Below, one piece after another: positions 17,301 to 47,899 of a DNA stretch of 64,000 nt. The position numbers and the translations under genes are program-made. The notes beneath the pieces were generated by a model. It was not told the DNA's origin. It saw nothing but the letters and a program-made list of their open reading frames with translations, and did not search any database. The DNA is from Nemertoderma westbladi (taxonomy: Eukaryota > Animalia > Xenacoelomorpha), in contig JAUCBJ010008230.1 of NCBI GenBank assembly GCA_032718475.1, positions 104,437 through 168,436 of the forward strand, read 5' to 3'. Within the stretch, counting starts at the first letter, position 1. Each line of letters starts with the position of its first letter.

Positions 17301-17901
17301 ATAGTTTCATCGTATTGCTAATGTGGCTGGAGTTAAAGTTATTATGTAATGCAATAATTCACCTCAAATATCTCAGCTAGTTCATGAATATAATGAGTAT
17401 TAAATCCTTGTCAAAATCCTTGGTGTTTTTCAGCAATAATTTATCAAAATATCCTCTGATTTTTTTCAAAAACCACATCGATTTTCATATTTATAACTTC
17501 TAACCCAATCCACGAGATAGAGAATCTTAAACGAAAGTCATAAGAACAGGTAACACTTTCATTTATAGAAGTAATCAGCTGTTCTTTGCTTCGTCTTTCC
17601 CCAGGAGATGGATGAATTTTGATTGCGTCGGAACACCCCCTTTTTGAGGCTCTCAGAGTGGACAGATAAGTAGCCTATCTCCCTGTTAATATTGTTGTGT
17701 TCTAGAATATTTCTTATAGTTTCATCGTATTGCCAAAGCGGCTGGAGCCAAAGTTAATATGTAATGCAATAATTCACCTCAAATATCTCAGCTATTTCAT
17801 GAATATAATGAGTATTAAATCCTTGTCAAAATCCTTGGTGTTTTTCAGCAATAATTTATTAAAATCTCCTCCGATTTTTTACAAAAAACGACATCGATTT
17901 T
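5308..17901. repeat. ~415-bp AT-rich satellite array, ~30 monomers
   Basis: Head-to-tail copies of a unit containing GATTGCGTCGGAACACCCCC and CATCGATTTTCATA; short spurious ORFs recur at multiples of ~415 bp (e.g. 10257 and 11088). Confidence 0.97.
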
Positions 17902-18030
17902 TATATAATTATATCCTCATAAAAGCCGTGGATTTTCAAAATTTAATTTTGTTCGAATTAACTTGTTATAAAGATTACATTAAGTCCTCATTTGTAATTA
18001 CTATAGCTATTTGTATAACATTGTTCAACT

Positions 18031-18103
18031 GGTTCAGTAGCTCAGTCGGTTAAGCGTTAGAAAATTGTGTAGTAGGTATTGAGTTCGAATCCTAGCAAGT
18101 GCG
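18031..18103 (+). promoter_or_regulatory. tRNA-like Pol III cassette (box A + box B) in U3 of element A 5' LTR
   Basis: Box A TAGCTCAGTCGG (18038-18049), box B GAGTTCGAATCC (18081-18092), T-run at 18109-18114; the acceptor stem does not pair. Confidence 0.7.
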
Positions 18104-18180
18104 AATTATTTTTTGTGCTAAATTTCAACTCATTCAAATTTACCGCTACGATTTAATTGCATCTGCTTAAGGTAGATTAA

Positions 18181-18352
18181 CCAATGAGATTGCAGTTATT
18201 TGATAGTAACCAATGTCGTGCAAGATACGTGTTTGCTGGACCAATGATTATCTTTAAAAACCCCATAGAACGCATAGAACAATCGAGATTTATCTCGATT
18301 ATTGCAGCACAAAATTTGCTATGAAAGGTGCGTTTTGTTTATTAGTTATCAC
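18181..18352 (+). promoter_or_regulatory. Pol II promoter of LTR A (three CCAAT boxes, TATA, Inr-like GTTATCACT)
   Basis: CCAAT at ~18181, 18210 and 18241; GCTATGAAAGG (TATAAAA in the 3' LTR); the same architecture occurs in LTR B. Confidence 0.6.
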
Positions 18353-21040
18353 TTCACTTTTCTAATCTTACTTCTGATATTCACTTCTTTATTATACTTT
18401 AGTAGTTCTTTAGTGTATATTATCTTTATTAGTTATCGTTAAATTTTGTAATAAAGTTAGAAGTATTCGCTATATCTGCCCTTTTTTACTATGTTTTCAC
18501 AAATTTGTATTTGATTAGCTAAGTGCTAATTTTTTTGAATAAAATATTTTGATTTGAACCGCGTGTAAAATATTTGGAATTGAATACCGGTGTTTAAAAA
18601 GGGTTTAAATAACATATTGTACCGGTACAAAATTTTCGTAAAAGTACAACCAAACTCTTTTGTTTTTCAGGATTCAGAGCTCATTTCTAGACTGTAACGG
18701 GAGCAAGACCGTGTTTCGCAAGTTTGGGAGATAGATAACTCACAATTTTGGTTGGGAAAATCGCACTTCGTCCGCAATGCTGGAAACGGAAAGGTTCATG
18801 TCCAGTTTGTATCTGGGAATCTGTTTTTCTGGAGAATTATTGGAGTGGGTAAGTTCGAAAAGTTGCATAAATCAGTTAGGCATTACCGTATTAGTTAAAA
18901 TTATTGTGGGTTCCACTGTCTCAAGTATTTATGCATTCCGTACGATTTCTTTTTTATTGCTGAATTAGTCCGTATTATTTGTGTTTAATTTATATATTTG
19001 ATAACGTATATCGTTATCCGATTTATTTGTTATAAAATTGGCCGTTAGGCTAATTTTATTATATACTTACCGTGACATTTATTTGCTGTGAAATTGGCCG
19101 CTAGGCTAATTTTATCCATTTGATATAAAATCGGCCGGTAGGCTAATTTTATATGACTGTAATTAGTACCGTTTAGATATAAATACGGTAAATTTGATAC
19201 TTTGACACTCACATTTTACTTGACTTACAATTACCGAAATGAGTGACAAACAAGACTATACGAAGAATACACCTACCGACTATGACTCATGTGACGCGGA
19301 TAAGTCAGTAGCGGAAGAACCACAGGGGAAGACTCGTGAGCCTACCGAACCTACACCGTGTGCGTCACCAGTACATCCAATGGGAGTACCGGATGCCGTA
19401 GTACGAGGCGACGGCAGGACTGAGGATTTTCTAACGGTCCCGCAACCTAGACACAGGGAAACGGACATGGTAAGTTCAGTAGGAAGCCAATAGAGCGTAG
19501 TTAGAAGCGTCGGAGAATACATGGCACATATTACCAGGAGTATTGGAGAAGGCCAACGCATATTAGACGAGTTGACCGCTCCGATGTCTCGGTTCAAGTT
19601 TTATACCCTACAGGTTAGAGTACAAAGTAAAGTACATAAGTCCGTAGATACCCTAATCAGTCTACAAGATCTAGCCAGACAAAGACAGGATGTGGACACT
19701 CAATTTAGAATCCTCGAGAAATTAATGATCGCCAGGGAGAAACTAATTCAGTTTAAGTTGACCGTTAGACAGATACAACAAGAGCAAGCGAATCAGTTGC
19801 TAGGTGAGTCAGTTTCCGACGAACTATTACAACCCAAGGAAGAACAAGAACAGTACAGACTGGATGGACAATTGAAATACCTGACGGATCACTTACGGTT
19901 GTGCGGCGAAGACGTCGGCGATTTGGAAACCGTGCCGGAAACTACGAGGGAAACTTCACCCGTACAAATCGAACTGGCACCGGGAATATTGGATCAATCA
20001 CTGGTGAGTATTCGCAGCGAAATTGGCGAGGTGAGTATGGTAACGTCAGAAATTTCTCGACAGCAACAACAGTTCGACAGACAACAACGAGACATGGAGG
20101 AACAAACTCAACTGCTAATGATACAAGCAGCAGTAGAGGAAGAGAAACTACGTGTTGCGAATGTTGCAAGAATCTCTCATCTGCAAGAACAAGCTGAGTT
20201 GGAAGCAGCCGAAATGGAAAGGTTAGAGTTGGACATTGCACAACAAGCGGCAGCGGCCGAGTTAGCGCAACGAACAGCAGCGGCCGAGTTAGAGTGACAA
20301 GCGGCAGCGGCAGCAGCAGCGTCCGAGTTAGAGCGACAAAGGTTAGCTTCAGAAGCAAGAACCGAAATGAAAAAACGGCAAATAAAGGCTCAAACAGCTA
20401 TACGATTAGCGGAGCTCGAGGCGCAACAACAACAGACGGAACAATGAGAGAAGGAAGCTAAACTTCATTTCGAACTCGAAAGGAAGGCGAGAGAATTAGC
20501 CAACGCCAAAGAGGATTTAGATCTCAAAGCCCGCGATCGATCAATGAGATCTCGAGACGGACACGATCTAGACTGGATAGAGGTAAGGCATCGTTAAATT
20601 CAGGAACGAATGAAGGAAGGAAGTGTAGGAGCACCTGAACGAGAATGAGAATTGGTTAAGGACTTATGTCAACGATTTCCTCAAGTAACTCCAATGTTTG
20701 CACCAATTACGACCAAAGAACCTGTTTCGATTGCGGGTAGTAGTAATATTTCTCCTATCCATGGTGCGACGGAGCACAGGTTTGTTATTCCGGACAAGTT
20801 TATACCGCCAAGAGCAACGTCATCGCCTATTCCAAAAGTCAAGGTAAGTAACCCGCCGATTACCGATTGTAGTAGTTTATTGGCAGGGACTGCATTACTG
20901 ACAACTAAACAGGTGAGTCAACCTTCGACACCCCAACCTGTTACGCACAACGTAGATCCGATCGCATTTAGATCTAAGAGGACTTTGGATTCGAACGCCA
21001 TTACGCGACCACAGATTCAGTTTACATCGCAATCTACAAC

Positions 21041-21840
21041 TTTGAGGAAGACTTGCGAGCCTACCAAACAACGGAAACTAGTGGGTGATGTTTCCAAACG
21101 GAATGTTAGAATTCGGACAACACAACGGACGCGAGCACGTCGGCCACCGTATCCAGGTGATAGTAGTACTTCAAGCAAATCGGATTACCCGGAACGCGAA
21201 GTGTTTAGAACAGGAGCGGCCGATGAATGCAAATGCGAGCGTTCAGATAATTCCTTTATGAATAATCCTCCACAAAATACACCAACACAGAAAGCGTTAC
21301 AACCAACGGACGCAATTAGTACGCAACAATTCGCCGACCTAATGCAACCAGTTGTCAACAAGTTGGCCCAGATTGAGGAACGCCTAGAGGAAGTTCAAAC
21401 CGATAGTTAGAGAAATACCGAATTCGAACACAATAGAAACTTTGAGGAAGACTTGCGAGCCTACCAAACAACGGAAACTAGTGGGTGATGTTTCCAAACG
21501 GAATGTTAGAATTCGGACAACACAACGGACGCGAGCACGTCGGCCACCGTATCCAGGTGATAGTAGTACTTCAAGCAAATCGGATTACCCGGAACGCGAA
21601 GTGTTTAGAACAGGAGCGGCCGATGAATGCAAATGCGAGCGTTCAGATAATTCCTTTATGAATAATCCTCCACAAAATACACCAACACAGAAAGCGTTAC
21701 AACCAACGGACGCAATTAGTACGCAACAATTCGCCGACCTAATGCAACCAGTTGTCAACAAGTTGGCCCAGATTGAGGAACGCCTAGAGGAAGTTCAAAC
21801 CGATAGTTAGAGAAATACCGAATTCGAACACAATAGAAAC
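21041..21840 (+). repeat. 400-bp tandem duplication in gag of A
   Basis: 21041-21440 is repeated at 21441-21840; AAC microhomology at the junctions. Confidence 0.95.
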
Positions 21841-24800
21841 CCGAAGGATCCACAAAGAGCGATACCTTCAAGAAACACCTCGTATCAAAGGAAAGCGCCA
21901 AGACGAGAGAACATCAACTCGATCGCCAACCAAGGACGCAAAACTTTAAATGTAGCCGAGGAGATAGCTAAATTCGCAGCTAGACAAGGACTACCGGTGC
22001 AACGACCACCTAAGTTTTCCGGTAACTCCAAACCTTGGCACACATTCGTAGACTACATCGAATCTCAAATTGCTGTGTGCGCTTTTACATCAAGGGAGAA
22101 GTTTAACTACCTGCTTCAAACATTGACGGGAGAACCCAAACGTCTAGCAGAGACTTTCGTTGGTGTACCAGATTCCTTCGAGTTAGCATACGATCGCTTA
22201 ACTTCAATCTACGGAGGTACAGTGAGCATGGCCAAGTCAGTAATAGAGGAACTCTGTAAGGAGGGGGCTATTACTAAACCCGTCGACTTACTAAAACTAG
22301 CTGACGAAATCAAAAACGCTATCACTACATCACGTTCTATTGGACAACTCGAGTACGGCAACACCCCTACAGTCCTATTAAAAATTATAGGAAGACTACA
22401 CCATCGACTTCGTCGAGAGTGGAGGAAGATTGAGTAACAGTGGGAAGAAAGGGGTGGATTCTTAAAATTAGAGGATGTATACCTATTGATATCGAGGGAA
22501 GCGGTGGTAGAAACGCATTCCAACTACACCGACCAACATATTGTAGCTGAAGGAATCACCTTACCATCCTCAAATTGACAAAAACTACCAACGACATCTA
22601 CAAGGACGGCCACCTACGCAACACCAACAGAAACCCGACAATTTTCGGACGGTAGTAAAGTGTCCGCACCTATTGGGATCAGACAGACTAGGCAGCAACT
22701 GAGCGCCGACTTTAGCGGTTGCCAATACTGCAAGTGGCTCGGTAAGCGGCATACCAGTCACAAGTTGAGAGGATGTTGACTGTTTCGCGAGATAAACTCG
22801 GAAGAACGAAGACTACAGATACGGCCATTGGATTCTTGTTGGAGGTGTACGCAACATGGACATGTCCGTAAGGACTGCCCAAATACAGACACATGTCCTT
22901 CCTGTGGACGCAACCATGACGGTTTGCTCCATACGGACAGTCACACACCAACGAAACGCTTCACCAGGGAACACCCGGAAGCTGCAGCAAAATGCAACAC
23001 CGCGTATAAGAATCAAGAATCAAAAACAACACCAACATTTGTGACGCATATACGGGATTGTTTCCCGGAACAATCCGGGTCTTCTGATGAAGAATCAGAA
23101 GACGACGACACATACTCAGATGGAGACAAACAACCATCGATTGCGCTTCTGACGCCTGACCAACTGAAGGGATTTAACGTGATTCCTATTAAGATTACGG
23201 GCACAAAAGGTAGCAAACGGATTTACGCTATTTTACATTCAGCCTCATCTCACAGCTATGTGGATGAGAAGGCCTACGTCGTGACGGACCTTAGACAAGG
23301 TAAGCACGTCAGATATACTGTAAGTAGTATGCATGGACAACGTGCAATACCAGTGACTAGAGTTAAGTTAAACTTAGACACTCTTCTTCCGAAATCGCAA
23401 CATAGCGAAAAGGAGAGGTCTTTGTTACCCTTTAAGGATTTGACTTTTGCGGCCAGAAAGGACTTTAGTAATCTACTGGGTCCAGTGCCGGAACAATCCT
23501 TAGAGGACCGTAAGTATTTCAGACACCTTGGTGTACCTGAATGTCCTGTTAATTATCGGTCGGTAGCAATGCTGATCGGGACAGACCAATTCAACTTACA
23601 TCAAGTGTGGGAAACCATACTATCGGTAGTCGTTGCGGGAAACGCTTACGCCTGACGAACTCCGATAGGTTGGTATACTCGAGTGCCTGTGCGCACACTC
23701 GATATAAGTGATGAGGAAGACGATGTGCAAAGTACATGTAGTTTATTAACCACAACTTCGACTCATTCCTTTTCACACGACAGAGACTATACTACAGTAT
23801 GTTCGACAAAACACGACAACGTTACAGGTACGACGTGTGTAGCAAATACAATAGGTCATGGAAGGCAGAGGCCAATCCACAAGGTAAGTTTAGAGATTGC
23901 GAAGGAGACGAGTCAGGCAGAGGTTCCATCAACGACAGATGATAACGCCGGAAGGCTTGCGAGTCTACCTAAACCAATAACCTTAACGACGCCCGTTGAT
24001 GTCGACGCATTAAGAAACTGTCAAGTGGAACAAGCTGCACTAGACAAAGAATTAACAGAGAAAACTATCAGATGGTTGGAGCAAGATACAGCCAAACCAG
24101 GGAGTTACGAACCATGTATGTCGGAACAAGAGAAACAATCTTTAAAGATCATGGAAGATACTATCCGCCAGATGGAAGACGGACATTATGAGGTGGGGAT
24201 GTTATGGCGTAACCAACGTCCTAAACTTATAAATAATTACCCGCTAGCCTTAAGACGTTTAAACTCAATACGACAACGTTTATTGAAGGACGAGAAAGCC
24301 CATCTACAGTATAATACCCAGATGGAGACGTATTTGACAAAAGGGTACGCTATCAGAATGACTAACCCAGAGATTGTGACTGACCAGACATACTATTTAC
24401 CACATCACTACGTGAGACACCCCGATAAACCTGACAAAGTTCGTGTAGTTAATGACTGCGCGGCTCTGTTTGAGGGAATGTCTCTCAATAGTGAGCTGAT
24501 GGATGGACTAAACATGAATAATTATCTCATGGGCGTGATTATGCGCTTCCGTCAACGCCAAGTAGCATTTACTTGCGACGTCGAAGCCATGTTTCACCAA
24601 GTGCAAGCGTTAGAGCGAGACATAGACAGTTTGAGGTTCCTCTGGTACCCGGATGGAGACTTAAGTCAACCACCGGCGACTTACCAAATGCAAGTTCGCG
24701 TTTTCGGTGCCAGAGACAGCTCAAATTGTACTATGTACGCCCTGAAGCAGACCGCTAGGGACCAGAAACATAAGTATGACCCAGAGGTAATCCAGATCGT

Positions 24801-25941
24801 AGAACAAGATTTTTATGTGGACGATGGATTACAAAGTTGTAACACAGTAGAACGTGCTATAACAGTAGCACATCAATTACGGGACTGTTTAGCAGGCGGA
24901 GGTTTTAACCTCACCAAGTTTGCCTCAAACAGTGCCAAATTAGTAAATTCATTCGAAACGACCGAACGTGGGGGTGGTGACATTGACTTAGAGTTTGAAC
25001 CACTACCAACGACCAAGGTGTTGGGGTTCTTTTGTTCACAAGAAGAGTTTTTGGGGACCCAAACACAGACAACTTTCGAGTGAAGGTAAGACTGGACGCT
25101 CAAGGGGATTCTCTGACAAAGAGGTCTTGCTTGTCAAAGCTGAGTCGACTGTTCGACCCCTTAGGTTTTATCAGCCCAATAATACTGCAAGCAAGAATAT
25201 ACATGCGCAGTATTTGGAAAGATGGACTTACATGGGACAAACCAATCTCATCCGAACAAGTGGACTTATGGAAAACTTGGGAGGCGCAATTGTCTTCGCT
25301 AGAAGATTATTCCATACCCTGGGTGTACTTTCCATTACAGACGACATTTCCTGACGACTTAGAATTACATTGTTTTTCCGACGCCAGTGACAACGGCTTT
25401 GGAGTGACAGCGTATTTGCGCAGACAAGTAGACTCAGACGAGTTCGAGGTTTCGCTCATTACTTCTAAGGCTAAAACCATGCCTACTAAGTACATGACGA
25501 CACCACGCGCTGAGCTACAAGCAGCAACCCTGTCAACTACAATCGTAAACATTATACAGACGGAATTACAGTCAAGTTTACAGATATTTTATTGGACTGA
25601 CGCAACGTTAGTTTTATTTTACATAAATAACGACACTCTTGAATTTAAGACATTTGTAGCTAACCGTCGTGCGGAAATTTTGGACCGTTCAATAAAGGAA
25701 GATTGGCGACATTGTCCCGGACCACAAAACCCAGCTGATATTGCGTCACGAGGAATGATGCCTGAGGAGTTCTATAAACTGGAGAACAAGGAATTTTGGC
25801 AACACGGACCACAATTCTTGCAAAGAACATCACAAAATTGGCCGCCACTATACGACAACAAGTCTAACACTATCCCTAAAGACGCAGAAATTACTTACGT
25901 CAACCGCATTGTAAACCTGACAGATTCTTGGACAAACGCGT

Positions 25942-27145
25942 ACCTAAAGAGGTTGAGGTCTCTATAGGGGTGCGCGTAACAGGCGGTGGCAGACTCGTGA
26001 GGGTCTGGGGGCACGTTAAATCTTGTCCTAAGTGCAAGGGAGATACTTAAGGCCCTCGTGTCTAACAAACCATGAATTGCCATGGTGCCGTGGTACCGTC
26101 TAGTCAGCCTGTTGCCGTACTGCCAGTCCTGTACACAGTAGGGGTGGTGGCATGACGTGATTTGTGGCTCATGTGGCGTGAACTATGATTTGTATGTGGG
26201 CGATCAGTGGCAGTTTGCTTGGAGCTTGGATGGGTTCCTTTGGCCATCAGTTGTTCCGTTTTTTTGATACTATATGTTATTGTCTCCATGTCAGCTGATT
26301 GGTCTTTGGGATTTGTTTGGGTCTTTGAGCTTTCTGTTGCTGTGGGTACATGAGTACACGTGATTGTATGTGTGGCCACTGCGAGTGAGTATGGGAACCC
26401 TTGCCAGTTGGTCCAGACGCCGCTGGTATTAGTAGGACCATATTTTACTGCGCCCCAGCATACTTTGGGCACACAAAGTTATTTTACCCTGTCGGTAAAA
26501 TAAGGTACTCTCGATTTGTGGTTGGTCGATACAATTTTGTCCCCTCCGATTTTGTCTTTCCCGATTTTGACCCCGATTTTGTCTTACCCGATTATGTCAT
26601 CTGTGTGTGCATGGTATGTGTTCGATTTTGTGCTTACCATTTGTGTACTTGATTTCGTGAACATCTGTTGAGTACACGTGTACAGTGACTGGTAAGTGGT
26701 TACTTGTTCCTAGCTTTCGAGCTAGTCAATATTGTTTGTGGAACTTACTTCCCCTCAATATTGCCGGTGAGGCAGGTGAAAACGAGTCAAAATTCCATGT
26801 TGGGTAGCGCAAGCCCACGTGGGACAAGACCGTCGGTGAGGCCCAAGGGCGACCTTGGTGCTCGATCGCTATCGACTGGTCCACCTGCCGGTTGACTCTT
26901 TGTTATACTTTGAGTTGGCTCAATGTACAGTCAGGCCACAGTAAGTTGACAGTAGCCGCCCATCTGGCTACACGTTCGACAAGCTGTGCCGGTGTGATCG
27001 GGGGACCGAAAACAGAACCCGGGAAGCATCGGGCCACCCTCCGGCCCGGTCTGATAATAACATCAGTCAGACTGGCCCCAGGGGTGGTGGAAACACGTCC
27101 GCCTTGTGGGTGCGCCTCTGGGAGGAGCCCAAAAGGACGAAAGCG
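25942..27145 (+). ncRNA. Group I intron (IC2-like core) in pol of element A, between RNase H and integrase
   Basis: P1 ACGCGU|ACC pairs with GGU-G-CGCGU (U25941.G25972); P2 with GUGA loop; P3 26771-26778/26882-26889; P4 26783-26788/26828-26832; P5; P6a with GCGA loop; P7 U-[C]-GACUG 26872-26878/CAGUC-A 26928-26933; P8 26890-26898/26912-26920; ends in G27145; splicing restores NACRKLA. Confidence 0.88.
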
Positions 27146-30100
27146 GCCGAAAATTAGCGTGGATTGTACGTTTTGTACAATACGTTAAAGGCAAACACGA
27201 CTTTACACGTCGACTTACATTGACTGAGATTGACAGATGTGAAATTAAATTAATTCGCCATTACCAACTGCGATATTTCACGCGCAAATTCACATCTATA
27301 AGTCAAGGTCATCCAATCAAGTCGTCACCAATATTGAGTTGGAGTCCGATAATTTATAATGGCTTAATTTGTCATAAATCTCGGCTTCAAAACATTGACT
27401 TTAACAATAACTTTAGGTACCCAATAATAATACCGCAACATCACGAATTACAACGTGCAATGATACTGGACACACATTTACATCTGAAACACGCTGGAAG
27501 ACACCACTGTCTTTCCTATTTATGTACAAGATTTGTATTAATTAGACCCAGTAAAGCGTTAAGTTCAGTGAAACATACGTGTATTATTTGTAAAAAGGTA
27601 CATTCTAGAATAGGTACCCAAGAAATGAGCGAACTTCCACAAGCACAACTACAAGCATTCACACCACCTTTCACAGAGACTGGAATTGACTGCTTTGGTC
27701 CCATACATACGAAACGTGGACGTATACTAGTAAAACGCTGGGGACTGCTTTTCACATGTATGTCCAGTAGGGCTGTTCACATTGAACTGGATCTTTCCAC
27801 CAACGCCTTTATACTTGCATTACGGCAATTTATCGCTAGATGCGGACTAGTAAAATGCTTGTACTCAGACCAAGGTACAAACTTTGTTGGTGCTCGAAAT
27901 GAAATTGCTAGAGCCTTTAAGAAATTAGATCATGATCAAATCTCAAACAAACTACGTCCTTACAAAATTGTTTGGAAGTTTAATCCTCCAGATAGTCCAT
28001 GGAGAGGCGGAGTCTGGGAGAGACTGATAAGATCTATTAAAACAGCCATGGCAAAGGTCATTCCAGTACACCACATCTTGACAGACGACCAACTGACCAC
28101 ATTGTTTGTTGAAATCGAGGCAATACTAAATACTAGACCAATAGTATTAGTACCCGATGACAAACAATCCCAATTTGCTTTAACACCGGCACACCTGCTG
28201 ATGCAGGCACCGACAACATTGACGCCTATTTCTATTCCAATAGAAAGCGATAGCTATGGTAGAAAAGCGTGGAAAATCACGCAACTACTGGCTAACAAAT
28301 TCTGGGAAATATGGCAAAACCATTATTTGCCCTCTATTTCTGCCAGAACAAACTGGTACAATAATACCCGCGCATTAAAGCCGGGAGATCATGTGCTGTT
28401 AGCAGAAGTGAATCTAAAAAGACGCTTCTGGATAACAACAGGTGTAATTTTAGCCACATATCCATCTATGGATGGAGTGACAAGAACTGTGACGGTACGG
28501 ACAATTGACGGTCGTACAGTAGATAGAGCGACTCAACGTCTCGTACTTCTAGAAGAGACTCGGAACGAGTCTGGAGACTAGAAATCTCCATCTAATGTTA
28601 GTAAATAATAAGGAGTTTAGAAATAGATTTCCATGTACCTGTACACTGTAGTAAAGACAGCGGTAGAATTCCATTGTCTTTATATGTGAACATTGAGGGT
28701 AGTACCCTTATGTGTCACATAGGAGCGGGATTTGCAGGTATAAGAAATGGAATTCTACATGGAACTCACAATATTGAAACATTTTCGAAATTTAAATAAT
28801 CCATTTTGGATTTGAAAATGTTAAAATTTTCTCCAGTGAATAGATTTCAGGGTACAGTCGGGCGGAACTTAAAATTAGAGAAACAAGAGAACGGAAGACT
28901 TGCAAGCCTTTCTTAAATTTAATTAAATTTTACACGGTCTTGTTTCAATAAGTTACGTCAAATAATAGACTTCCCTATATTTATTACTAATCTTGATTGC
29001 TTATTTTCTGATAATAGTTTGGGACCAAAAGGTGAGTATTTTAGACTCACAGCCAGTTTAGCCCAAAAAAAAATCGTTTTTATTTCGGCAAAAAATTTAG
29101 ATAAGAAACAGTGTGTTATTAAAGAAACCCTAGATCTTAGGCTATGGGTAGGAATTTAGAGCATTGTCAAAGCACAAAGGGCAGACGAAAACCCTCACAT
29201 CTCCTCACAACTAACAATAAACTCTGTTGTATTCCCTCTAGTAGCAATGATTATGGCGAAAGGGATTCATGGAGAGCCGAGATGGGGATATGATATCCAA
29301 GAGGAAGCAGCAGCGCCATTCGAACGATTTGGAGCTAAGGACTACACCATATTTGGAATAAAGGATTTATCAGAAAGTACAGCGAAACTCGCAAAGACTA
29401 AATATGACTCGAACATATTAAAGAGGAGGCAAAACGCGCTAAACGAAATAATCGAAAGTTTGCGTAAAACCTTCAATGAACTTTACCCGTATGATGCTTT
29501 ATGTGATACGGGAGATATTAGTGAAGATTAGCGAAATTAGCGATATTAGCGAAATTAGTCGTTTGTATCACACTATGCAATACCTGAAAGCAGATGAACC
29601 TATGCCTGCGGTACGCGATGAATTCGATTGAATGCATCTTTACAGACGAACTCAAGGAGACGATAGAGAAACGAAGGAAGCCTTTTCAGTTTACAAACTT
29701 TATTATAAATGTGGTGCTTGTATGCGCGAACAACAAAAGGCGATTCCGATGCGTTTGAATAAGGAAAATCCCGAACCGATTGGCAAGGTGTTCAAACCAT
29801 CAACAACTACGCTACCAGGAAGGAGGGTATCCTTTATCGAATCCGTATCATTCATTTGCTATGACTGGTCCAAAGGCGGGAGAAATTGTCGTTTACCCAC
29901 CTAAGATTGTTGAACCCGATGTATTCGAACTTACGCTGGATGAGGAGACTCAGTCAACCCGCGAAAAGAAAGAAGCTCTTAGCCTATACAGAGCCTACAA
30001 GGCTTTCAAGGAAGGTGAGATGGAAGAATGGGGCGGAAGACTTGCAAGCCTACCTTACCATTGGACGTCACACGATCAAACTTCAGCTAAGGAGATGACA

Positions 30101-32518
30101 CCGGAAGTATTCGAAAGTATAAACTTTGCTCAAAAACGTTATTCAGAGACTACAGATTGCATCTCCGGAAAGGACAAGAGAAATGCAATCGCGTAGTACT
30201 TCGACCACGAAACCATTGAGTATGACACTCAATTACCCTATTAGTATACCAGTCCGAGAGGATACGATGTATGAAATACCTATCGTGGATCATCCGGAAA
30301 TCATTTCAAACTTGGAGTTTCTTCCTGCAGTTGTTCTAAGCGATATGGTTAAGATATATGATTTATGTAGACATATTACGCAGAAGGTCGTGCATAATGT
30401 TCCGCCTCATATTCAAGACTTTAGGGAATTGGATAGAGCTGGTGCCGATATAGCTCCGAGTAACCTGAAAGGATATTTAACCAGAACGATTCGTTTATGG
30501 ATTGGAACCGGAACCTTCGAGTCGGATACAGACATCGCCACGAACTGGCAAGGTAAAGTCATTCATTTCGAGGACGAGAGGGATATAGAGAAGATTTGGC
30601 AACCTTGGAAGAATTGATGGATGAATGGAACAGAACGTTCAGATCATTTCAAGAGAATGGCTACATGTTTTGCGGCAGCCATCAACAAAGTCTGACTTCC
30701 AAGACTATACAAATTAGAGCGGCAGGCGGAGTCTTGCACGTTTTCAGTAGACAAAGAAGCGACAAACGAATGCCGATACCTCCAGCAAATACAAAGCGAC
30801 ACCATCTCATCACTAACATAGTAAAGAAGATGGACCAAGCTTGCAATATCGATGCTAGAATGCTACCAAAGATGGTAAGAAATATGATTTTAGATAAAAC
30901 GACCGATTACCGACACCTTACGTCAACACTCGACCTCTTATCCTGTGGTCTATAGAACAAGGATTTTTCCATGAGTATGATACTCAGAAAACCGGAACTG
31001 GATACATCTCCTACCTAATGTTTAATTGGGATTATAAGGAAAGTAAAAGAACCAAGTATATTGAAACGTATGGAGAAGGTGATACTCCGGATATAAACGA
31101 GTTTGAATCACAGCTCAAATGGAGAGGATGCGTGTATTGGGCTATTACGTCACCTCCAAGAGCGGTCCTACAATATTATTTAGCGATAGAGTCATCAGTG
31201 AATGTTTGCCTAGTCGCCAACATTGTGTCTCGGACTCTTAAAAGACATCAACTTTGTCTCGGAGAAGATCATACGTTCTACGCGGAAGGGAGAATTCATA
31301 CCGAAGTGTTTAGACGATTTCTCGAACCCTTCTACAATTCCGACGCTTAGTGCAATGCCTTTACTCGAACAGGATTTAGTATATTTCGAGACGTGTATCT
31401 TCGCTGTGCGGGATCTCTTATCGAGAGACCATCTATGTTTACATTGTTACCCTATGAAGGAGAACGTATCGTGGAGATTACCGACGAATCACGGCAGACG
31501 AGCGCACCTATCGGTCACTTAGGTGATGATTTCGACGTAATGACAACCGTTGATGATCCTCTAGAGGAACTTCTTGAGATTGAAAGGAACCTCCCGAAGA
31601 AATCTCAGACGGAGATTCGACAACTTGAAGCAACAGATGCTGTAGTTTGTATACAACCTTCTGAAACATACCAACATGTAGATCCAGACGACTACGACTA
31701 TAGTGTGGGAGGAAGCGCTCGACCAATTGGAAATCTTATATATGAGCGAGTGTGGTACCCTGCTAACACTATGTGTGGTAAATGTGGCGTCACTGGACAT
31801 CATTCGACAAAGTGCAGTGAAAAGCACATTACTTCAACTCAACTGATTTGTGGATGGTGTGGAGATCGAGGGTCCCATACATTTTATACTTGCTGGAGAT
31901 TTATGGCTCAATGCACATACTGCAATATAAAGGGACATCGAGCATCTGAATGCCAATTACGAGACATACCATACGAACACGAATCTGTAAAACTTGTGAG
32001 AAAACTATTTGACGAATGGGAAGATTTAGCTGACAAACATGTATCGGCGCAAGAAAGACGATTCCCAATGAGAGCACATCTTGGATTTTGGGCGGTAAAC
32101 CCTCAAACTAGGATGTCAGAAGGATATATCTCCGCTATGCCCCAATATGATAAACTTATCGAGGTAGTCGATATTTTGCCTCACGATAGTGGATTTCGAG
32201 TTGTGCGCAAATGTTTGTTGCAGATTCACCCCGACAATAAGAATACATGGCACTTCCAGAAAGTCGTTAATCGTATCACATATGGTGAATTCGATTGTTT
32301 CCGATCGGAAAAGCGAAACAAAGGAGCTTGGTTAACCGTCGCATGGGCGTACCGAGCCGCCTTCTACCATAAACGTATACGAGCGAGCGTATTCGAGGAA
32401 GAGGAGATCCTAGAGGCGACCAACATACCAGCCACTCCAGTTGCGCCGTCTGCACGTCACCCTCGGGAGGACTGGCAGAATAGGATCATCAGGGTTCAGA
32501 AAGTGAGCCAACACTTAA

Positions 32519-34091
32519 CCCTATTAGTACCGGGCTATAAAATGTTGTACAAATACCGGGAGGGGGTCATATTGACCCCCCCCCCCCTCTAAAATCTACA
32601 AATATTTACGAAAACGTCTGATTTTTTGTTTGTACGTAGGTATCACTTGTCTGGATCCGACCGAAAAAAAAATTTCGAAAAAATGTACTGGGGTGGTTAT
32701 ATTGCAGCACCAAAATTACAAGTAGTGCACAATTTTCACCAAATTTGAAAGTTACATTTTCGGCTAATTATTTTTCAATACAGGTTTTCTGGGGTGTAAA
32801 ATACTTTGGAAAATATTAAAAAATGATATGATTACTATAAATGGCTGTTTAGTCCTCTCTGCGTAGGAAAAAAATGAAAAAAACAAGTAACCAGCACTTT
32901 TCAGATAGAACTCAAAATTTTTAATTCACTTATACGATGCTATAAATTCACATTTTCAGGTTTTCGAGGGCGCTGATTCTAATGGAATACATTTCTAATA
33001 TGCTAGATCATTGCTACTTGTATTTTTCGGCGTAATTTGGGAAATTTTGGTGCTAGCACCAAATTTCGTACCCATCACCAAAAAGTACAAGTTTGCGATG
33101 TCCAGTGCAGTTTTTATTGATTCCATCGGATTCAGGACCCTCGTAAACCCGTATAACGCAAGAAACAAGGTGATACTATCTACTTATCAATTTGCATATT
33201 TTCCAAAATTTGGTGCAATTTTCAACAATTTTCAACAATTTTCACCCACCGGCGAAAAATACAAGTTTGACAACTCTTATGAAATTTTTACTGATTCTAT
33301 TGAATTCAGAACCATCACAAACCCGTATAACGCAAGAAACAAGGTGACACAATCATTTGATATATTTGATGGTTTTCAAAATTTGGTGCTAGCACCACAT
33401 TTTGCACCCACATCCGAAAAACACAAGTTTGAGATGTCTAGTTCGATAATTATATTTTCCATTGAATTCAGAACAGCCATAAACCTCTAAAACGCAAGAA
33501 ATAAATTCTCACAAGCAATTTTATCTATTGAATGGATTTTCAAAATTTCGTGCTAGCACCAAAATTTGCACACAGCACCGAAAAATACAAGTTTGATACG
33601 CTTGGTGCAACTCGTATATATTTCTTCGAATCCAGAAACCCAAAAAACCCCAAGTCCCAACTCCAAAAACAAGTTTCAAACGATCAATTTACAAAATTGA
33701 CTTATTTCAAAATTTGGTGCTGGCACCAAAATTTGGCACCCACCGAAAAAAACAAGTTTAAAATTTCTAAATCAATTTATATGAATTCCATCAAATTTCT
33801 AACACCAAAAAAACCGTGTAAATAAAAAATAGAGATGTTACAATTCATATTTAATGAAATGTAATTTTCAAAAAACGTCTCAAAAAAAGGCCAAAAGTAG
33901 GGTTAAAATATGGCGCTATAACTCGAAAAGTACCCAATATTTTTGAAAACGGTTTTCACTACTAGGAAGACAATAGATTTTTAGGAAAAGTCATAAAATT
34001 TCAGATTCCCAACTGCGTTTGTTTCAGAATTATAATAAAAAAACCACGGGAAGGGTCATATTGACCCCCCCCCCCCCCGGGTTTAATAGGG
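32519..34091. mobile_element. non-autonomous piggyBac-type DNA transposon
   Basis: TTAA TSD (32515-32518, 34092-34095); TIR CCCTATTA...TAATAGGG; subterminal GGGTCATATTGACCC at both ends; no transposase ORF. Confidence 0.88.
33040..33830. repeat. ~167-bp internal tandem repeat (5 copies) in the piggyBac-type element
   Basis: AAATTTGGTGCTAGCACC...ACAAGTTTG recurs at ~33043, 33207, 33379, 33543 and 33710. Confidence 0.8.
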
Positions 34092-35180
34092 TTAAAGAAA
34101 ACTATCAACATTGAAGAACGCAAGGGAAATGAACCGACTATTCGAGTTACTCGGGATACGGTGTCACTTCCCAGAGAACCGCAAGGAGGATCGGGACATA
34201 TACCAGCTGATTAAAGGGGGGCGCAAGTTTCTCTTGGGTCTGCGTCGTCCGCTCCTCCCGCGCGTTCCCAGACGTTTTACCAACAGTAGACACAACCGGT
34301 CGATCACGAGGAGTCGGTCGAGGCTTTGGGATGCCTGAGGATATGGGCCTTGGGGATTTTGAGGAAATGGTTGCACCATCTCCCAACGTCCAAGCGATAC
34401 TAGTGACTCGCCCCACAAGTCCCATATCGCGAGCAAAGTCACCTGTATGCAGTTTTCGAGGACGCGGCAGGGCTCGATCCACCAAGCGGTAAAAGGGAGG
34501 GCAAGGGTGGACGGAAGACTCGTGAGCCTTTCTTGTGAATTTTGTGATTTATTTGAATTATATGTTTTATATTTAGTAAGTTTTGTATTCGGAAGGAATT
34601 TATATTTAGTAAGAATTTATATTTAGAAGGAATTTGTATTTTGCAAGATTTATATTTTATATTTGTGATTATTCCGTTTTTATGCAATTTTTACTGTTTC
34701 GAATATTATGCAATTTATATCTTATAAGCAGTATTTTGTATTTGCAGTGAAATAGAAGGCAAGAGTGGACGGAAGACTCGTGAGCGTTTCTTAGGATTTC
34801 ATTTGTAAATCGTTATATTTGTAATTATAAATTTTATATTTAGAAAGTTTGTACTTAGAGAGACTCATATTTGAAATTATTCCGAACTTATGCAATTTAT
34901 ATTTAGGCACGAAAGTATTTGTATTTGTAATTATTTGAATTTATGCAATATCTGAGATGCAATAGATTTATATTGGTGAATTTAATTTAGATTTATATTG
35001 TACTTACTTAATAAAGTCTTAAATACGTAAAGTTTGAATTTGTAATTATTTTGTATCTAATCATTATGTAAAGGTATTATTGTTTGAGATTTAATTTGTA
35101 AATTTATGTAGGTACGCCCCAACTATTTCATAATTTGATTTGATTGGTGAAAACCGTATATTTTATGCACGATAATATCC

Positions 35181-35196
35181 TGTTTTCATGGAGCGG
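35181..35196 (+). other. polypurine tract of element A
   Basis: TGTTTTCATGGAGCGG abuts the 3' LTR; identical sequence abuts the 3' LTR of B (51470-51485). Confidence 0.7.
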
Positions 35197-37092
35197 TATA
35201 GAATTATATCCTCATAAAAGCCGTGGATTTTCAAAATTTTATTTTGTTCAAATTAACTTGTTATAAAGATTACATTAAGTCCTCATTTGTATTTACTATA
35301 GCTATTTGTATAACATTGTTCAAGTGGTTTATTAGCTCAGTCGGTTAAGCGTTAGAAAATCGTGTAGTAGTTATTGAGTTCGAATCCTAGCAAGTGCGAA
35401 TTATTTTTTGTGCTAAATTTCAACTCATTCAAATTTACCGCTACGATTTAATTGCATCTGCTTAAGGTAGATTAACCAATGTGATTGCAGTTATTTGATA
35501 GTAACCAATGTCGTGCAAGATACGTGTTTGCTGGACCAATGATTATCTTTAAAAACCCCATAGAACGCATAGAACAATCGAGATTTATCTCGATTGATTG
35601 CAGCACAAAATTTGCTATAAAAGGTGCGGTTTTGTTCATTAGTTATCACTTCATTTTTCTAATCTTACTTCTGATATTCACTTCTTTATTATACTTTAGT
35701 AGTTCTTTAGTGTATATTATCTTTATTAGTTATCATTAAATTTTGTAATAAAGTTAGAAGTATTTGCTATATCTGCCCTTTTTTACTATGTTTTCACCAC
35801 GGTGAACACAACTGAGGAGCAGGATGGCAGGCTAGACATCGGGCCGCGGCAATAGACAGGAACATCAGAGGAATGTAGGAAGAGACAACCCGCAATATCA
35901 TCCGTAGTTATTCGCCCATCGCCTGAAAGGTTAGACAGCGTTCGATGCCTTGGTACCTAAGTGTAAGACCTAAGATTGAAGGTAGAGGTATTGACACGCT
36001 GTGCGCCAAAAAATTACATTTAGGGACTGTACTTTCTTAACTCAGAGAAAACCCGCAGTAAGCCTTCATATTCCTACGGGGGAGGAGAGAGAGAGTAGAG
36101 CAGGTAGAGATACTAGTACTCAGATAGGACGCAGGCACACTAGTACAAGGCATACACATTGGTTGGGTGCAGCAAGCTGTACGCCTAACTCTTGCTAGGT
36201 ACAGGTGCGTCGGTGACCGTTTGTAGTACACGGTATCTACTATTTGTGTTGGAACTTGTAGGCCAGGAGGTTACTGTGTTTTTACCTGAATTGGGATTGT
36301 ACCATTCAGGCGGTAGGGCAGTTTATTGCTAGGCGCAAATAAATTAAGGCTATTAGGGATACTAACATCTACCGTGTCCCCGCCGACTTTCTGATAAGGA
36401 GTTGCCGTGCCCACCTAGGCAACCAAAATTCTAGATAGGAAGCCAGGCCAGCTATTTGTAACTGTACGCCTACTGTAGTAAACTAACACATTTCTTCTTA
36501 GTATTAGGGACATGGTAATTAAAACTGCCGAATTCTGGGTGTAGTATTAACCTTATGCCTGAATTTGAGTCCTGGAAGTACACAAAAGGGGAAGGAGCCT
36601 CATTATTTGTGAGTATTGGACCTACAAGCCGTAAATTGGGGTATTTATAAAATACACCAGACCCAGTAATTATATATATGAAGGATTAAAACTGATTTTG
36701 ACTGTGGGAATTAACACACGCGCGCGTTAGAAATTATTTACACCTCAAAATATATAAAACAATTTTTGTCCTTACTGCACTTTGGCCGCTAGTTAGACAT
36801 TTAGCTAGCAACCCTCACCCAACCCTTATAAATCACACCGCGGCAAAGTATACAAGCGTCTTTAGTCCATCAGTGAGTCAGTCCGATTTTAGGATTCGCT
36901 GCGCGGGATTTTGTTTTATCGAAGTTTGTCCGTTCGTAGACTGTCTTCTGCCTCACCGGTTATAAGAGACTAATACTGCAATAGGTTCGCATACTTGGAG
37001 TTTACTGTTTTGGTGAGAAGGTCGACTTTATACTTTGATTCACAGACTTTACAGTAGGATATTGCAGGTATTAGGTACGTCTCTTCGCTATA
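35197..37092 (+). repeat. 3' LTR of element A (1896 bp)
   Basis: Starts TATAG right after the PPT and ends CTATA before the TSD ATTTT. Confidence 0.88.
35326..35398 (+). promoter_or_regulatory. tRNA-like Pol III cassette in 3' LTR of A
   Basis: Copy of 18031-18103: TAGCTCAGTCGG ... GAGTTCGAATCC. Confidence 0.7.
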
Positions 37093-46300: not shown

Positions 46301-47899
46301 GCGCAACTTTAGACGTATCTCCAAAGGTGATACGCCATTAGGATGTTAAATCCCGAGGTAACCACAGATCAGACATATTACCTGCCACATCATTTTGTTC
46401 GACACCCGGACAAACCTGGCAAGGTGCGTCTAGTCAACGACTGCCCCGCGCTTTACCAAGAGATGTCTATGAACAGCAAATTGATGGACGGGCCGAATAT
46501 GAATAATTATCTCATGGGAGTCCTAATGCATTTTAGACAACGCAAAGTGGCTTTCACCTGTGACGTAGAGGCCATGTTTCACCAGGTTAAGGCTTTGGAG
46601 TGGGACAGGGACAGCTTGAGGTTTGTATCCGGATGGAAATTTAGAACTACCAAATGCAGGTAAGAGTTTTCGGAGCCAGGGACAGCCTCAACTGCACCAT
46701 GTACGCGTTAAAGCAGACCGCATTGGACAGACGAGACAAATTTGACCCAGAAGTAGTTCAAACAGTGGAACGAGATTGCTACGTGGATGACGTCCAAAAG
46801 AGTTGTGACACTTTGGAGCGCACTACGACCGTAGCATACCAACTCCAGGATTGTCTCGCTGAGGGCGGATTCCGCCTGACAAAGTTCGCTTCCGACGAAC
46901 CCGAACTAGTGAACTTATTTGACCCGACGGATCGCAGTGGAGGTGACTTAGACTTAGACCTAGAACCTCTACCTCCGACCAAAGTATTAGGACATAGTTA
47001 GGACCCTAACACCGACAATTTTAGGGTATGTGTAAGGTCCAACGACCAGACTAGACCTCTCACTAAAAGGACTTGCTTATCGACCATGAGTCGATTGTAT
47101 GACCCATAGTGTTTCATTAGTCCAGTGATCCTACATGCTAGGATCATACTCCGCAGCATTTGGCAAGCTGGACTGGAATGGGACGATCCCATCCCAGAAA
47201 AGTTAGCTGAGCAATGGAGGGACTGGGAAGCCCAACTGACATTCCTACAAGACTATACCATACCAAGGGTATACTTTCCTTTGTAGACCACCTTTCCTGC
47301 CGATTTAGAGCTTCACAGCTTTAGTGACGCTAGCAAGGATGGATTGGGGGTTACCTTATACCTTAGACGACAAGTGACATTGGACAGCTACGATGTGTCT
47401 CTTGTTACTTCTAAGGCTCGAACAATGCCATTGAAGTATATGTGGAGAGCTGCAAGCCGGGACGATATCCACTGATATTGTCAGTCTAGTTCAACGCGAG
47501 CTGGAGGCTAACTTGAAGGTCACATATTGGACGGATGCGACATTGGTACTTTGGTACATAAACAACAAAGCATTTGAGTTCAAGACTTTCGTAGCCAACA
47601 GACGGGCTGAAATATTAGACTGGTTGCTAAAACAAGATTGGCGTCACTGTCCAGGGAAGCTGAACCCAGCTGACATCGCGTCACGGGGGATGCAACCGCT
47701 TGACTTTTGTAAACCGGACAATAAATCCTTTTGGTTTAGAGGACCCGATTTCCTACAGCGACCATCAGACGAATGGCCACCGTTATTTGACGCGACAACC
47801 AATACCATACCAGAGGGTGCCGAGATAAAAATCGACAAGGTTGTCAAATCTAAAGCAAAAGCCAACGCCAAGGTCAAGAGGAAACAAGGATGGACGAAA

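Follow-up and report, generated by a model that had tools for sequence, protein, structure and literature searches.

Host Retrotransposon and Insertion Site

The window (the whole 64-kb stretch of DNA that was analysed) contains a BEL/Pao-type LTR retrotransposon, element A, whose pol gene is interrupted by 1,204 nt, and a diverged relative, element B, in which the homologous site is intact. The features of the locus are as follows (a slash within a sequence marks the insertion point).

17902–35797, + strand: host element A, a decayed BEL/Pao-type LTR retrotransposon copy, recognised by its LTRs, Pfam domains and pol relatives
17902–18500 and 35197–35797: 5' and 3' LTRs of element A, a pair 97% identical
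24999–25941, + strand: 5' exon, the pol frame up to SWTNA plus the first base of the split codon; last base U25941
25942–27145, + strand: predicted group I-type intron, 1,204 nt, delimited by the empty sites in element B and in a DNA contig of sequencing run X1, and assigned by family membership
27146–28581, + strand: 3' exon, which finishes the split codon and continues with RKLAW, Integrase_H2C2 and DUF5641 (frame and Pfam)
48717–48752, + strand: intron-less homologous site in element B, GACGCGT/GCCGCAAG, from the alignment with element A

The host is assigned to BEL/Pao by its LTRs, a gag with DUF1759 and a zinc knuckle (zf-CCHC), and a pol with PF05380 followed by DUF5641/Integrase_H2C2, all of which are present; the PF05380 match covers residues 40–201 of the 5' exon frame, and the closest pol relatives are animal BEL/Pao proteins (31–40% identity). 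The pol frame of element A has several breaks, and since this copy is broken, the intron that it carries may never be expressed.

The insert interrupts the pol ORF between U25941 and the 3' exon and ends in G27145. Element B re-aligns with element A exactly from position 27146: element A reads SWTNA, insert, RKLAW, while element B reads SWNDACRKLAW without interruption, and the block SW..L.R..AW is continuous across the insertion point in related pol proteins. In addition, one DNA contig of run X1 omits exactly 25942–27145 (1204 nt with ends AC..CG and no ambiguity), and both empty sites, that of element B and that of the contig, read ACGCGT/GCC. The preliminary description had placed an insert in a BEL/Pao pol gene at precisely these positions and had predicted that its excision would give NACRKL, matching DACRKL of element B; both statements agree with the empty sites.

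Predicted Structure of the Intron

All the pairings claimed in the preliminary description were verified base by base. The parts of the intron are listed below; the helices P3 to P8 stand on that check, J8/7 on the core layout.

25936–25977, + strand: P1, exon ACGCGU and intron ACCU with GGGU and guide GCGCGU (MFE fold z −3.3; guide covariation in the family)
25978–26123, + strand: conserved 5' domain, comprising an AACAGG anchor, P2 and the next ~115 nt (69–77% identity in 23 metagenome loci)
26124–26765, + strand: lineage-specific spacer between P2 and P3, ~640 nt, without similarity to family members and without Pfam match
26766–26938, + strand: catalytic core P3–P8 (verified pairs, model R3 at 156.5 bits and E 3e-41, family covariation)
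26771–26778/26882–26889, + strand: P3
26783–26788/26828–26832, + strand: P4, with bulged A26785
26793–26800/26817–26824, + strand: P5
26835–26848/26853–26870, + strand: P6–P6a, with GCGA loop
26872, 26874–26878/26928–26933, + strand: P7, with bulged C26873
26890–26898/26912–26920, + strand: P8
26921–26927, + strand: J8/7
26934–27145, + strand: P9 and 3' domain, made up of several hairpins, with GAAAGCG at its end and G27145 as the last base (fold z −3.57; 3' architecture of the family)

P1 consists of ten contiguous pairs (25936–25945 with 25968–25977), places U25941.G25972 at the 5' junction and has a small hairpin (25948–25963) in its loop; helices of at least 10 bp centred on a U.G pair occur at about 3% of the T positions in the window. 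The pairing and the junction wobble thus stand as described earlier, but the guide proper is confined to 25972–25977, the formerly claimed 25969–25977 taking in the P1 extension as well. P2 (25990–25996/26001–26007) carries the GUGA loop ascribed to it, and a GNRA loop caps P2 in 30 family loci. The core helices P3–P8, said to follow the canonical order, were all found, and in that order. The putative guanosine-binding site, predicted from sequence, is the pair G26874–C26932 beside bulged C26873, with U26872 and four further P7 pairs. The last base of the intron is G, as had been noted. As for P10, pairing of the 3' exon with the guide is possible, but amounts here to 3 bp, and its conservation in relatives is not evident by eye.

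The ~640-nt spacer is unusual in length. Direct repeats of 13–15 nt occupy 26531–26645; a search of the spacer for a His-Cys box remnant gave nothing significant (E 0.076), and pairing between the spacer ends was no better than in shuffles.

A Family of Homologous Elements

The 21-mer at 26917–26937, taken as the family search word, retrieved at least 121 metagenome stretches (about 210 estimated) and 12 viral contigs. A 27-nt word across P7–P3'–P8, searched in metagenomes, and R-block words, used in two viral scans, gave no match.

Absence of covariation among homologues had been named beforehand as one of the results that would tell against a group I intron. In the core alignment (89 distinct rows) 92.8% of the paired cells can pair versus 75.5% after shuffling (none of 500 shuffles reaches the observed value), and the figure falls to 30–47% when the pairing is slid. 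Two-sided compensatory changes were found in 40 of the 48 core base pairs, in an alignment fitted to the model, with double changes in each of P3, P4, P5, P6 and P8. P7 is invariant in the retrieved set, its 3' strand having been fixed by the search word itself.

The second line of evidence is the match between guide and insertion site. Of 28 distinct insertion sites, 20 have a 5' flank to which the guide 6-mer pairs perfectly (6/6); the pairing ends in U.G at the junction in 16 of these and in C–G or G–C in the other four, and the remaining eight sites are without a perfect P1. When guides were swapped among sites (2000 permutations), the mean was 1.1 perfect pairings (maximum 6) and 0.55 with U.G (maximum 4). 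The viral members use CAGAAU/GUUCUG as the exon/guide pair. At the other end, the 3' domains of the family are alike in architecture and close with the motif ..A(A/G)G(C/U)G; this motif was recognised in 35 of the 66 loci with enough sequence, and a terminal G is present in 34 of these 35.

Family members lie in sense orientation in the pol genes of retroelements of several kinds (BEL/Pao, Ty3/gypsy and others), in major capsid genes of giant viruses, as well as at the beginning of a histone H3 gene. Sense-strand retroelement domains adjoin the element in 15 loci; such domains are present in 0 of 20 antisense ORFs. The coding sequence is precisely interrupted in the window, in L055, where two ORFs correspond to residues 17–204 and 207–419 of an intact capsid protein, and in L073, whose 3' exon begins RTKQTARKSTGG. 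Three members (L127, L098 and L097) contain ORFs with a PF05551 His-Cys box, that of L127 occupying the position of the P2–P3 spacer. A frame check on 22 loci found the 3' motif absent in eight, the longest flanking frames in phase in six and out of phase in eight; L068, which is flanked on either side by long ORFs, belongs to the last group. The proposed 3' ends are in several cases untrustworthy, decay affects many of the copies, and no conclusion is drawn from these counts.

Some surroundings deserve separate mention. L053 lies ~200 nt downstream of a Penelope-type hammerhead. The element in L122 has a Pho88-like ORF on one side and, on the other, a poly-A run starting 10 nt past its 3' end. 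In L175 and L179 a capsid gene is surrounded by three cores, all within 2.5 kb.

Covariance Models

According to the preliminary description, Rfam model RF00028 should have given an IC2/IC match at about 26750–26960. This expectation failed: on the window, its sub-stretches and the insert RF00028 gave no match at E<=10, and all Rfam models together yielded chance matches alone on the window and sub-stretches (GlsR20, 17 bits; CRISPR repeat, 16 bits). Nor did RF00028 match the relatives, 20 metagenomic and 12 viral, at E<=0.1. The same model recovered three phage T4 introns (105, 40 and 36 bits); of 20 bacterial/archaeal control loci it found 16. That RF00028 can miss subtypes is documented for archaea, where, in the portion of the study available, it gave 0 matches versus 95 with IB4/IA3 models (PMC6125680). 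The resemblance to fungal mitochondrial IC2 introns suggested in the preliminary description was not confirmed.

Three models of our own were applied. R2, a single-sequence model of the real bacterial intron L032, returned 58 matches in the window at E<=10, the core not among them; its best match there (28603–28736, minus strand, 14.4 bits) was rejected as chance, and R2 itself misses two of the three T4 introns. R1, built from the window core, was run on 98 loci and matched 92 of them, with 95 matches in all at E<=0.001; these reach 108 bits, and nearly all span the full model. The matches of R1 to canonical introns are individually weak (best E 0.16). R3 was built from six family members with the window core left out. 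With R3 the core of the window reaches 156.5 bits (E 3e-41), nothing else in the window is significant, and 12 of the 12 viral loci match at 118–132 bits. As to the connection with canonical group I introns, control DNA amounting to 95 kb was searched with R3, and nine of the ten best matches coincide with introns confirmed by RF00028, in the correct strand, although the best E is only 0.022; three printed alignments, those to control introns L041, L015 and L034, are in register. On the three T4 introns R3 gave one match, of 6.5 bits.

Discussion

The family homologues, the covariation, the match between guides and exons, and the gene contexts lead us to regard the insert, judging from its sequence, as a group I-type intron that belongs to a divergent lineage. 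Its position in a BEL/Pao pol gene is supported by homologues with covarying helices, site-matched guides, a conserved terminal G and, in some members, His-Cys box genes. We put at roughly 85% the probability that the insert belongs to a widespread family of group I-type introns undetected by Rfam models and would self-splice by guanosine initiation, restoring the integrase frame. The family is likely to be spreading through genes of retroelements, capsid genes of giant viruses, and a histone gene as well.

The alternative that holds up best, though we consider it doubtful, is that the insert is a relic of a group I intron which no longer splices in this lineage, its non-autonomous copies being multiplied in trans by intron-less elements. 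It would fit the decay of element A, the lineage-specific character of the 640-nt spacer, and the sequencing runs of the organism, which contain many diverged copies of the insert together with an intron-less form, and in which the majority variants G26819U (P5) and G26858A (P6a) break one pair each. Yet in the same runs common variant sites are sparser in the core (four in 163 nt) than in the 3' domain (13 in 212 nt), and the variants in P3 are compensatory in kind, since 26886 U>C in P3' and 26774 A>G in its partner strand both occur; moreover, the window copy has kept P1, P3, P7 and its terminal G intact. The copies also include a deletion in the P8 loop which leaves the stems unaffected.

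Much less probable is a group I-like ribozyme with another job in or beside transcripts, for instance end processing or capping in the manner of the GIR1 lariat-capping ribozyme. The position of L122 next to a poly-A run, the triple cores of L175 and L179, and the frame check, in phase in only six of 14 loci, could be read in this way, but such a function agrees poorly with guides that match the upstream flank and put a U.G at the junction, with the conserved terminal G, with the precise interruption of coding sequence in three loci, and with the existence of an exact intron-less DNA form.

We give very little credence to an unrelated nested transposon or template-switch capture that resembles a group I intron by chance. 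The curated model and the real-intron model gave no match at the core, and a descriptor based on pairing only proved not to be rare, 15 of 600 shuffles reaching the observed score, and was rejected as a discriminator. A second descriptor combined the Rfam-consensus letters of P7 (GACU/AGUC) with P3, P8, P4–P6 and AA in three junctions; its sole match on both strands of the window (128 kb) is the intron core, and dinucleotide-shuffled versions of the insert gave two matches in 40,000. Of 43 control loci with real introns it passes only four, for part of which the register is wrong, and it is therefore a specificity test and not a detector. Chance likeness is ruled out by the family-wide covariation together with the guide-exon matching. 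As for a nested transposon, no target-site duplication, terminal inverted or direct repeats, poly-A or ORF was found at or in the 1,204 nt, so that the duplication, terminal repeats and coding capacity expected of such an insertion are missing.

Two further readings are highly improbable: a spliceosomal intron or introner, although GT at 25940–25941 and AG at 27142–27143 would likewise remove 1204 nt, would leave ..ACGC/CGGCC.. instead of the ACGCGT/GCC of element B and the X1 contig, the true insert ending in AC..CG and not in GT–AG or AT–AC, while an assembly chimera or contaminant is at odds with the presence of insert and flanks in runs X1, X3 and X4 (three studies, same organism label), the exact restoration of the frame on removal, and the comparable pol contexts of relatives elsewhere. 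Nothing was found in favour of a chimera or contaminant; among the run contigs listed, none explicitly bridges an exon-intron junction.

Returning to the group I-type intron, its closest parallels include the nuclear rDNA introns (IC1/IE, such as that of Tetrahymena LSU), with which it shares a P1 guide with U.G, a terminal G, the P3–P9 core with a predicted P3/P7 pseudoknot, and GNRA loops. The P1 U.G pair is described as important at the 5' splice site in the accessible part of a recent survey (PMC11835236). Some members, like the rDNA introns with I-PpoI-type endonucleases, contain ORFs for His-Cys box homing endonucleases, a protein family which, in the sections available, has been described from nuclear rDNA group I introns (PMC9587614). 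Unlike the rDNA introns, the present family is RF00028-negative and resides in coding sequence of Pol II type, in retroelement pol, histone H3 and viral capsid genes; its R/S core reads AUCGACUGG / CAAUGUACAGUC versus UCAaAGACUA / AAGAUAUAGUC in the Rfam consensus. Nuclear group I introns are stated to be confined to rDNA in the available portions of two reviews (PMC3679873, PMC8395846), and a 2025 census, as far as its accessible text goes, records animal group I introns only in sponges, corals and placozoans, mostly in mitochondria (PMC11835236). That census and similar ones start from RF00028, a model that gives no match to the present family, so the family may have been missed systematically.

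Among phage introns, those of T4 td, nrdB and nrdD likewise interrupt protein-coding genes whose proteins require splicing; they are RF00028-positive, unlike the present family, and belong to the bacterial-virus IA type with extra helices. Group I introns are also known in giant viruses. The introns of large DNA viruses and polinton-like viruses (PLVs) are of self-splicing type in structural genes, and the present family occurs in major capsid genes of NCLDV. Available excerpts of one study report group I introns in PLVs integrated into protist nuclear genomes (PMC12220804). The published viral and PLV introns were found with RF00028, whereas the present family is RF00028-negative; some overlap with the published PLV introns is possible (PMC12220804). 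A further difference is that the window copy lies in an animal-type retrotransposon and not in a DNA virus. A group I ribozyme in a Pol II protein-coding retroelement of a probably animal nuclear genome had been called new: this may hold for the animal-type retroelement host, but not for group I introns outside rDNA as such, which are already known in giant viruses and, by the same excerpts, in protist-integrated PLVs (PMC12220804). Our literature search, limited in coverage, returned no paper in which a retrotransposon carries a group I intron, nor any containing the core strings.

The Ogre elements, LTR retrotransposons of legumes, offer a parallel in regulation, having an intron within the polyprotein coding region; according to the part of the source available, it is removed from only some transcripts, and the spliced RNA is translated in full (PMC6317226). 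We predict the same regulatory logic here, although Ogre is a plant Ty3/gypsy element with an intron of the spliceosomal kind, whereas a ribozyme-type intron in a BEL/Pao element is concerned here.

The proposed course of events is as follows. The guide would pair with ACGCGU, and an external G would attack after U25941; G27145 would next enter the predicted G-site in P7, at the G26874–C26932 pair beside bulged C26873, and the exons would be ligated with the integrase back in frame. Unspliced RNA should give Pol without integrase and could serve as the packaged genome, which would account for the many intron-bearing copies. New sites are probably reached by reverse splicing into guide-matching RNAs, the reverse-spliced intron then being copied into DNA by the reverse transcriptase of the host retroelement, and a few members may also move by endonuclease homing. 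We see about even odds that the family represents a group I lineage outside rDNA, in nuclear-type Pol II genes, which is spread by reverse splicing together with the host reverse transcriptase.

Reverse splicing combined with reverse transcription has been proposed for decades, with the complete pathway lacking experimental proof, in the available portion of one review (PMC3679873). The question becomes directly testable with an intron family that is concentrated in retroelement genes and whose guides match their sites; if the proposal is true, this family would be the first natural record of this long-postulated mobility route of group I introns. Likewise, if true, the window would hold the first group I intron from the nuclear genome of an animal. 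The family provides a new, compact, guide-programmable ribozyme scaffold, and for the retrotransposon itself the intron may act as a splicing-based switch between translated and packaged RNA.

The host element and the boundaries of the insert

17902–35797: element A, LTR retrotransposon, LTRs 97% identical
25942–27145: the insert, a candidate intron in pol (1,204 nt)
26766–26938: catalytic core of the insert, P3–P8

The assignment of the host to the BEL/Pao type, proposed in the preliminary description, was borne out by the LTR pair, a gag with DUF1759 and a zinc knuckle, and a pol with the "Pao peptidase" domain PF05380 followed by an integrase with DUF5641 (all Pfam). The nearest named relatives of this integrase (31–40% identity) are all from animals (bivalve, fishes, starfish, insect). 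Element A is a broken copy and interrupts a tandem satellite of ~416-bp period (54 copies found, mostly 92–100% alike, at 5443–17885 and from 37072 onward), into which it inserted. Its gag region contains a perfect 403-bp tandem duplication (21038–21840). The ~6.6 kb separating the end of pol from the 3′ LTR (28600–35196) is unusually long for a BEL/Pao element; this tail carries several open frames at 29160–32592, with a weak zinc knuckle as the sole Pfam match, and ~170-bp internal repeats at 33042–33811.

The pol frame of element A reaches 25941, meets a stop eight codons inside the insert and continues in another frame from 27146. Element B, a relative in the same window (67–73% diverged) whose DACRKL the preliminary description compared with the excision product, gives ...SWNDACRKLAW... 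straight through, its alignment to A restarting exactly at 27146. The block SW..L.R..AW is also continuous across the site in related pol proteins of public collections. One DNA contig of X1, a sequencing run labelled with the source organism, omits precisely 25942–27145, with unambiguous ends AC..CG, and a contig of X6, a run with another organism label whose kind was guessed, joins a diverged 5′ exon straight to 27146; pieces of the insert also occur in X6. A spliceosomal GT-AG reading is excluded because its predicted junction differs from the empty sites of element B and the X1 contig. A search of the insert for a target duplication, terminal repeats, poly-A or a Pfam-recognisable ORF found none.

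Element B has at 47690–48700 an in-frame low-complexity stretch of ~280 residues, rich in S-P-D repeats and absent from A, ~10 residues upstream of the site corresponding to the intron of A. Other copies of the element may likewise diverge there, to judge from loose ends seen at 25891 in both X1 and X3.

The stretch is present in runs from three studies, all labelled with the source organism. Insert and flanks alike are covered by thousands of short contigs at 85–100% identity (2369 aligned over 3 kb in X1, contig depth not being equal to copy number), and the insert is therefore a member of a repeated family, not a sequence unique to element A. The core is poorer in common variants, with 4 sites in 163 nt compared with 13 in 212 nt for the 3′ domain. 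The sole variant of P3′ is 26886 U>C, and the matching change of its partner, 26774 A>G, occurs, unphased, in loose-end contigs of X3 and X4; an 8+2-nt deletion trims the P8 loop and keeps the stems.

Secondary structure and covariance models

All helices named in the preliminary description were found in the insert, including a P1 of 10 consecutive pairs with U25941, the final exon base, opposite G25972. Pairings by themselves are weak evidence: the observed score of a generous pairing-only descriptor was reached by 15 of 600 shuffles, and a P1-like helix centred on U.G can be formed at ~3% of the T positions of the window. A stricter descriptor, which took the P7 letters and A-rich junctions from the consensus of RF00028 (the Rfam group I model) and required canonical order and junction lengths, had the core as its sole match on both strands of the window and was passed by 2 of 40,000 insert shuffles.

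The match to RF00028 that had been anticipated did not appear at E ≤ 10, even when 26740–27150 was searched alone, nor did this model detect relatives of the insert (0/20 metagenome, 0/12 viral, at E ≤ 0.1). It recovered the three T4 introns used as positive controls (105, 40 and 36 bits) and 16 of the 20 bacterial/archaeal control loci. Group I diversity is not covered by any single model such as RF00028, as stated in PMC6125680, which gives for archaea zero matches by RF00028 versus 95 by two subtype models. Control loci L013, L020, L021 and L023, which have perfect canonical group I R and S core motifs, gave no RF00028 match at E ≤ 0.01, a reminder of the limits of the model. R2, a single-sequence model of the real intron L032, gave 22 matches across the control loci; the candidate core was not among its 58 matches in the window at E ≤ 10. 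R2 fails on two of the three T4 introns and is therefore of short reach.

A dispersed family with covarying helices

Relatives were retrieved by exact occurrence of a 21-nt word (26917–26937: end of P8, J8/7 and the 3′ strand of P7), found in 121 metagenome stretches (~210 estimated); the 79 listed metagenome loci have 43 distinct contig-set prefixes. Exact copies of a 19-nt part of the word (26919–26937) are present in 12 viral contigs of IMG/VR. Judged by sequence, these relatives are distinct from element A rather than copies of it: by blastn they resemble the window in three regions, namely the retrieval word, the R-to-S core (73–81% identity) and the 5′ domain at 25968–26123 (69–77%).

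A model built from the window core, R1, was searched against 98 loci (L151–L172 not included); 92 of them matched at E ≤ 0.001, with 95 matches in total, almost all spanning the whole model and the top one at 108 bits. In the R1-fitted alignment of 89 distinct rows, where fitting to the model favours structure, 92.8% of cells are paired versus 75.5% in shuffles (0/500 reach it), and a slid-partner control under the same fitting bias paired only 30–47%. Both sides change in 40 of 48 pairs, with double changes in each of P3, P4, P5, P6 and P8. P7 is invariant in this set, its 3′ strand being fixed by the retrieval word. Conversely, R3, built from six metagenome members only, had the window core as its sole significant match there (156.5 bits, E 3e-41) and found 12 of 12 viral loci at 118–132 bits.

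For a comparison with canonical group I introns, R3 was run on 95 kb of control DNA: of its ten best matches, nine lie on the correct strand of introns confirmed by RF00028, at low scores (best 13.6 bits, E 0.022). The alignments shown for three controls are in register, that of L015 lining up P3, the R element, P3′, P8 and the S element, and R1 behaved in the same way. We read this as a common architecture and catalytic core with little common primary sequence.

Guide–exon matching and intron ends

In relatives whose contig includes the 5′ domain, a variable 6-mer precedes the conserved anchor AACAGG..., after which comes P2, capped by a GNRA loop in 30 loci. In 20 of the 28 distinct combinations of exon and guide, this 6-mer forms all six pairs with the last six exon bases, the predicted splice site lying 26–34 nt upstream of the guide. 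At the junction, 16 of these 20 have U.G and the other four C-G or G-C; the remaining eight combinations are imperfect, and many of these contigs are probably dead copies. Over 2000 permutations, swapped guides gave on average 1.1 perfect sites (0.55 with U.G) and never more than 6 (4 with U.G).

Exon/guide pairs, examples
Window: ACGCGU/GCGCGU
L068: CUUCGU/GCGAAG
L074: ACAGAU/GUCUGU
L108: GUGUGU/GCACAC
L117: ACACCU/GGGUGU
Nine viral loci and L107: CAGAAU/GUUCUG, shorter P1 loop

A 3′ terminal motif is shared by 35 of the 66 loci with enough sequence and ends in G in 34 of the 35. A frame check across loci found 6 of 14 in phase, the 3′ ends being unreliable.

Genes hosting the family

Recognisable domains beside the family element lie in sense-strand ORFs only. 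Retroelement domains (RVT_1, RT_RNaseH, integrase zinc finger, rve, gag knuckles, DUF1759) were found at L062, L068, L074/L086, L081, L082, L084, L088, L090, L093, L095, L108, L116, L117, L119 and L129, and in none of 20 antisense ORFs of at least 150 aa. Several downstream ORFs enter the RT profile only partway along, at position 78 in L095, 65 in L117 and 130 in L108.

L073:2–331 (−): start of histone H3 coding sequence directly abutted by a family member
L127:229–1023 (−): His-Cys box (PF05551) homing endonuclease-like ORF between P2 and core
L098:480–1268 (+): PF05551 His-Cys box ORF after the core, as also in L097
L053:1328–1396 (−): Penelope-type hammerhead (Hammerhead_HH9), 40.7 bits, under the gathering score

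In L073, whose contig lacks the 5′ exon, the base after ...AAAGCG opens RTKQTARKSTGG..., which is histone H3 from the second residue after the initiator methionine. In L055 a giant-virus major capsid gene is split mid-gene, its two ORFs corresponding to residues 17–204 and 207–419 of an intact capsid protein, and in L107 and nine viral contigs (among L173–L184) the 5′ splice site lies where the capsid domain ends. L175 and L179 each have three cores within 2.5 kb around the capsid gene, and in L122 a Pho88-like ORF is followed by the element and by a poly-A run beginning 10 nt past its 3′ end; an intron role is less evident in these three loci, and the L122 contig may be an unspliced transcript or a sign of a 3′ UTR role.

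The His-Cys box ORFs occupy two different positions in the RNA, that of L127 coinciding with the 640-nt spacer of the window copy; endonucleases of this family have been described in group I introns of nuclear rDNA (PMC9587614). In L053 the hammerhead precedes the predicted 5′ splice site of the family member by ~200 nt.

Possible mechanism and significance

The analysis shows the layout of the insert, the family and its covariation, the guide–exon rule, the terminal G and the coding contexts. In the predicted splicing reaction, guanosine would attack after U25941, G27145 would dock in P7 and ligation of the exons would bring the integrase back into frame. The genome that is packaged would be the unspliced RNA. 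The element could spread by reverse splicing into guide-matched RNAs and subsequent copying by the reverse transcriptase of its host element; experimental proof of the full reverse-splicing and reverse-transcription pathway is described as lacking in a review (PMC3679873).

The limited collection of literature searched contained no account of a retrotransposon carrying a group I intron, nor any paper with the core strings. Group I introns outside rDNA have been reported in giant viruses and integrated polinton-like viruses (PMC12220804), so the kind of thing is known, and the novelty originally claimed narrows accordingly. The apparent novelty lies in the lineage itself, in its escaping the standard model, in a retroelement host of animal type and in the breadth of its protein-coding hosts.
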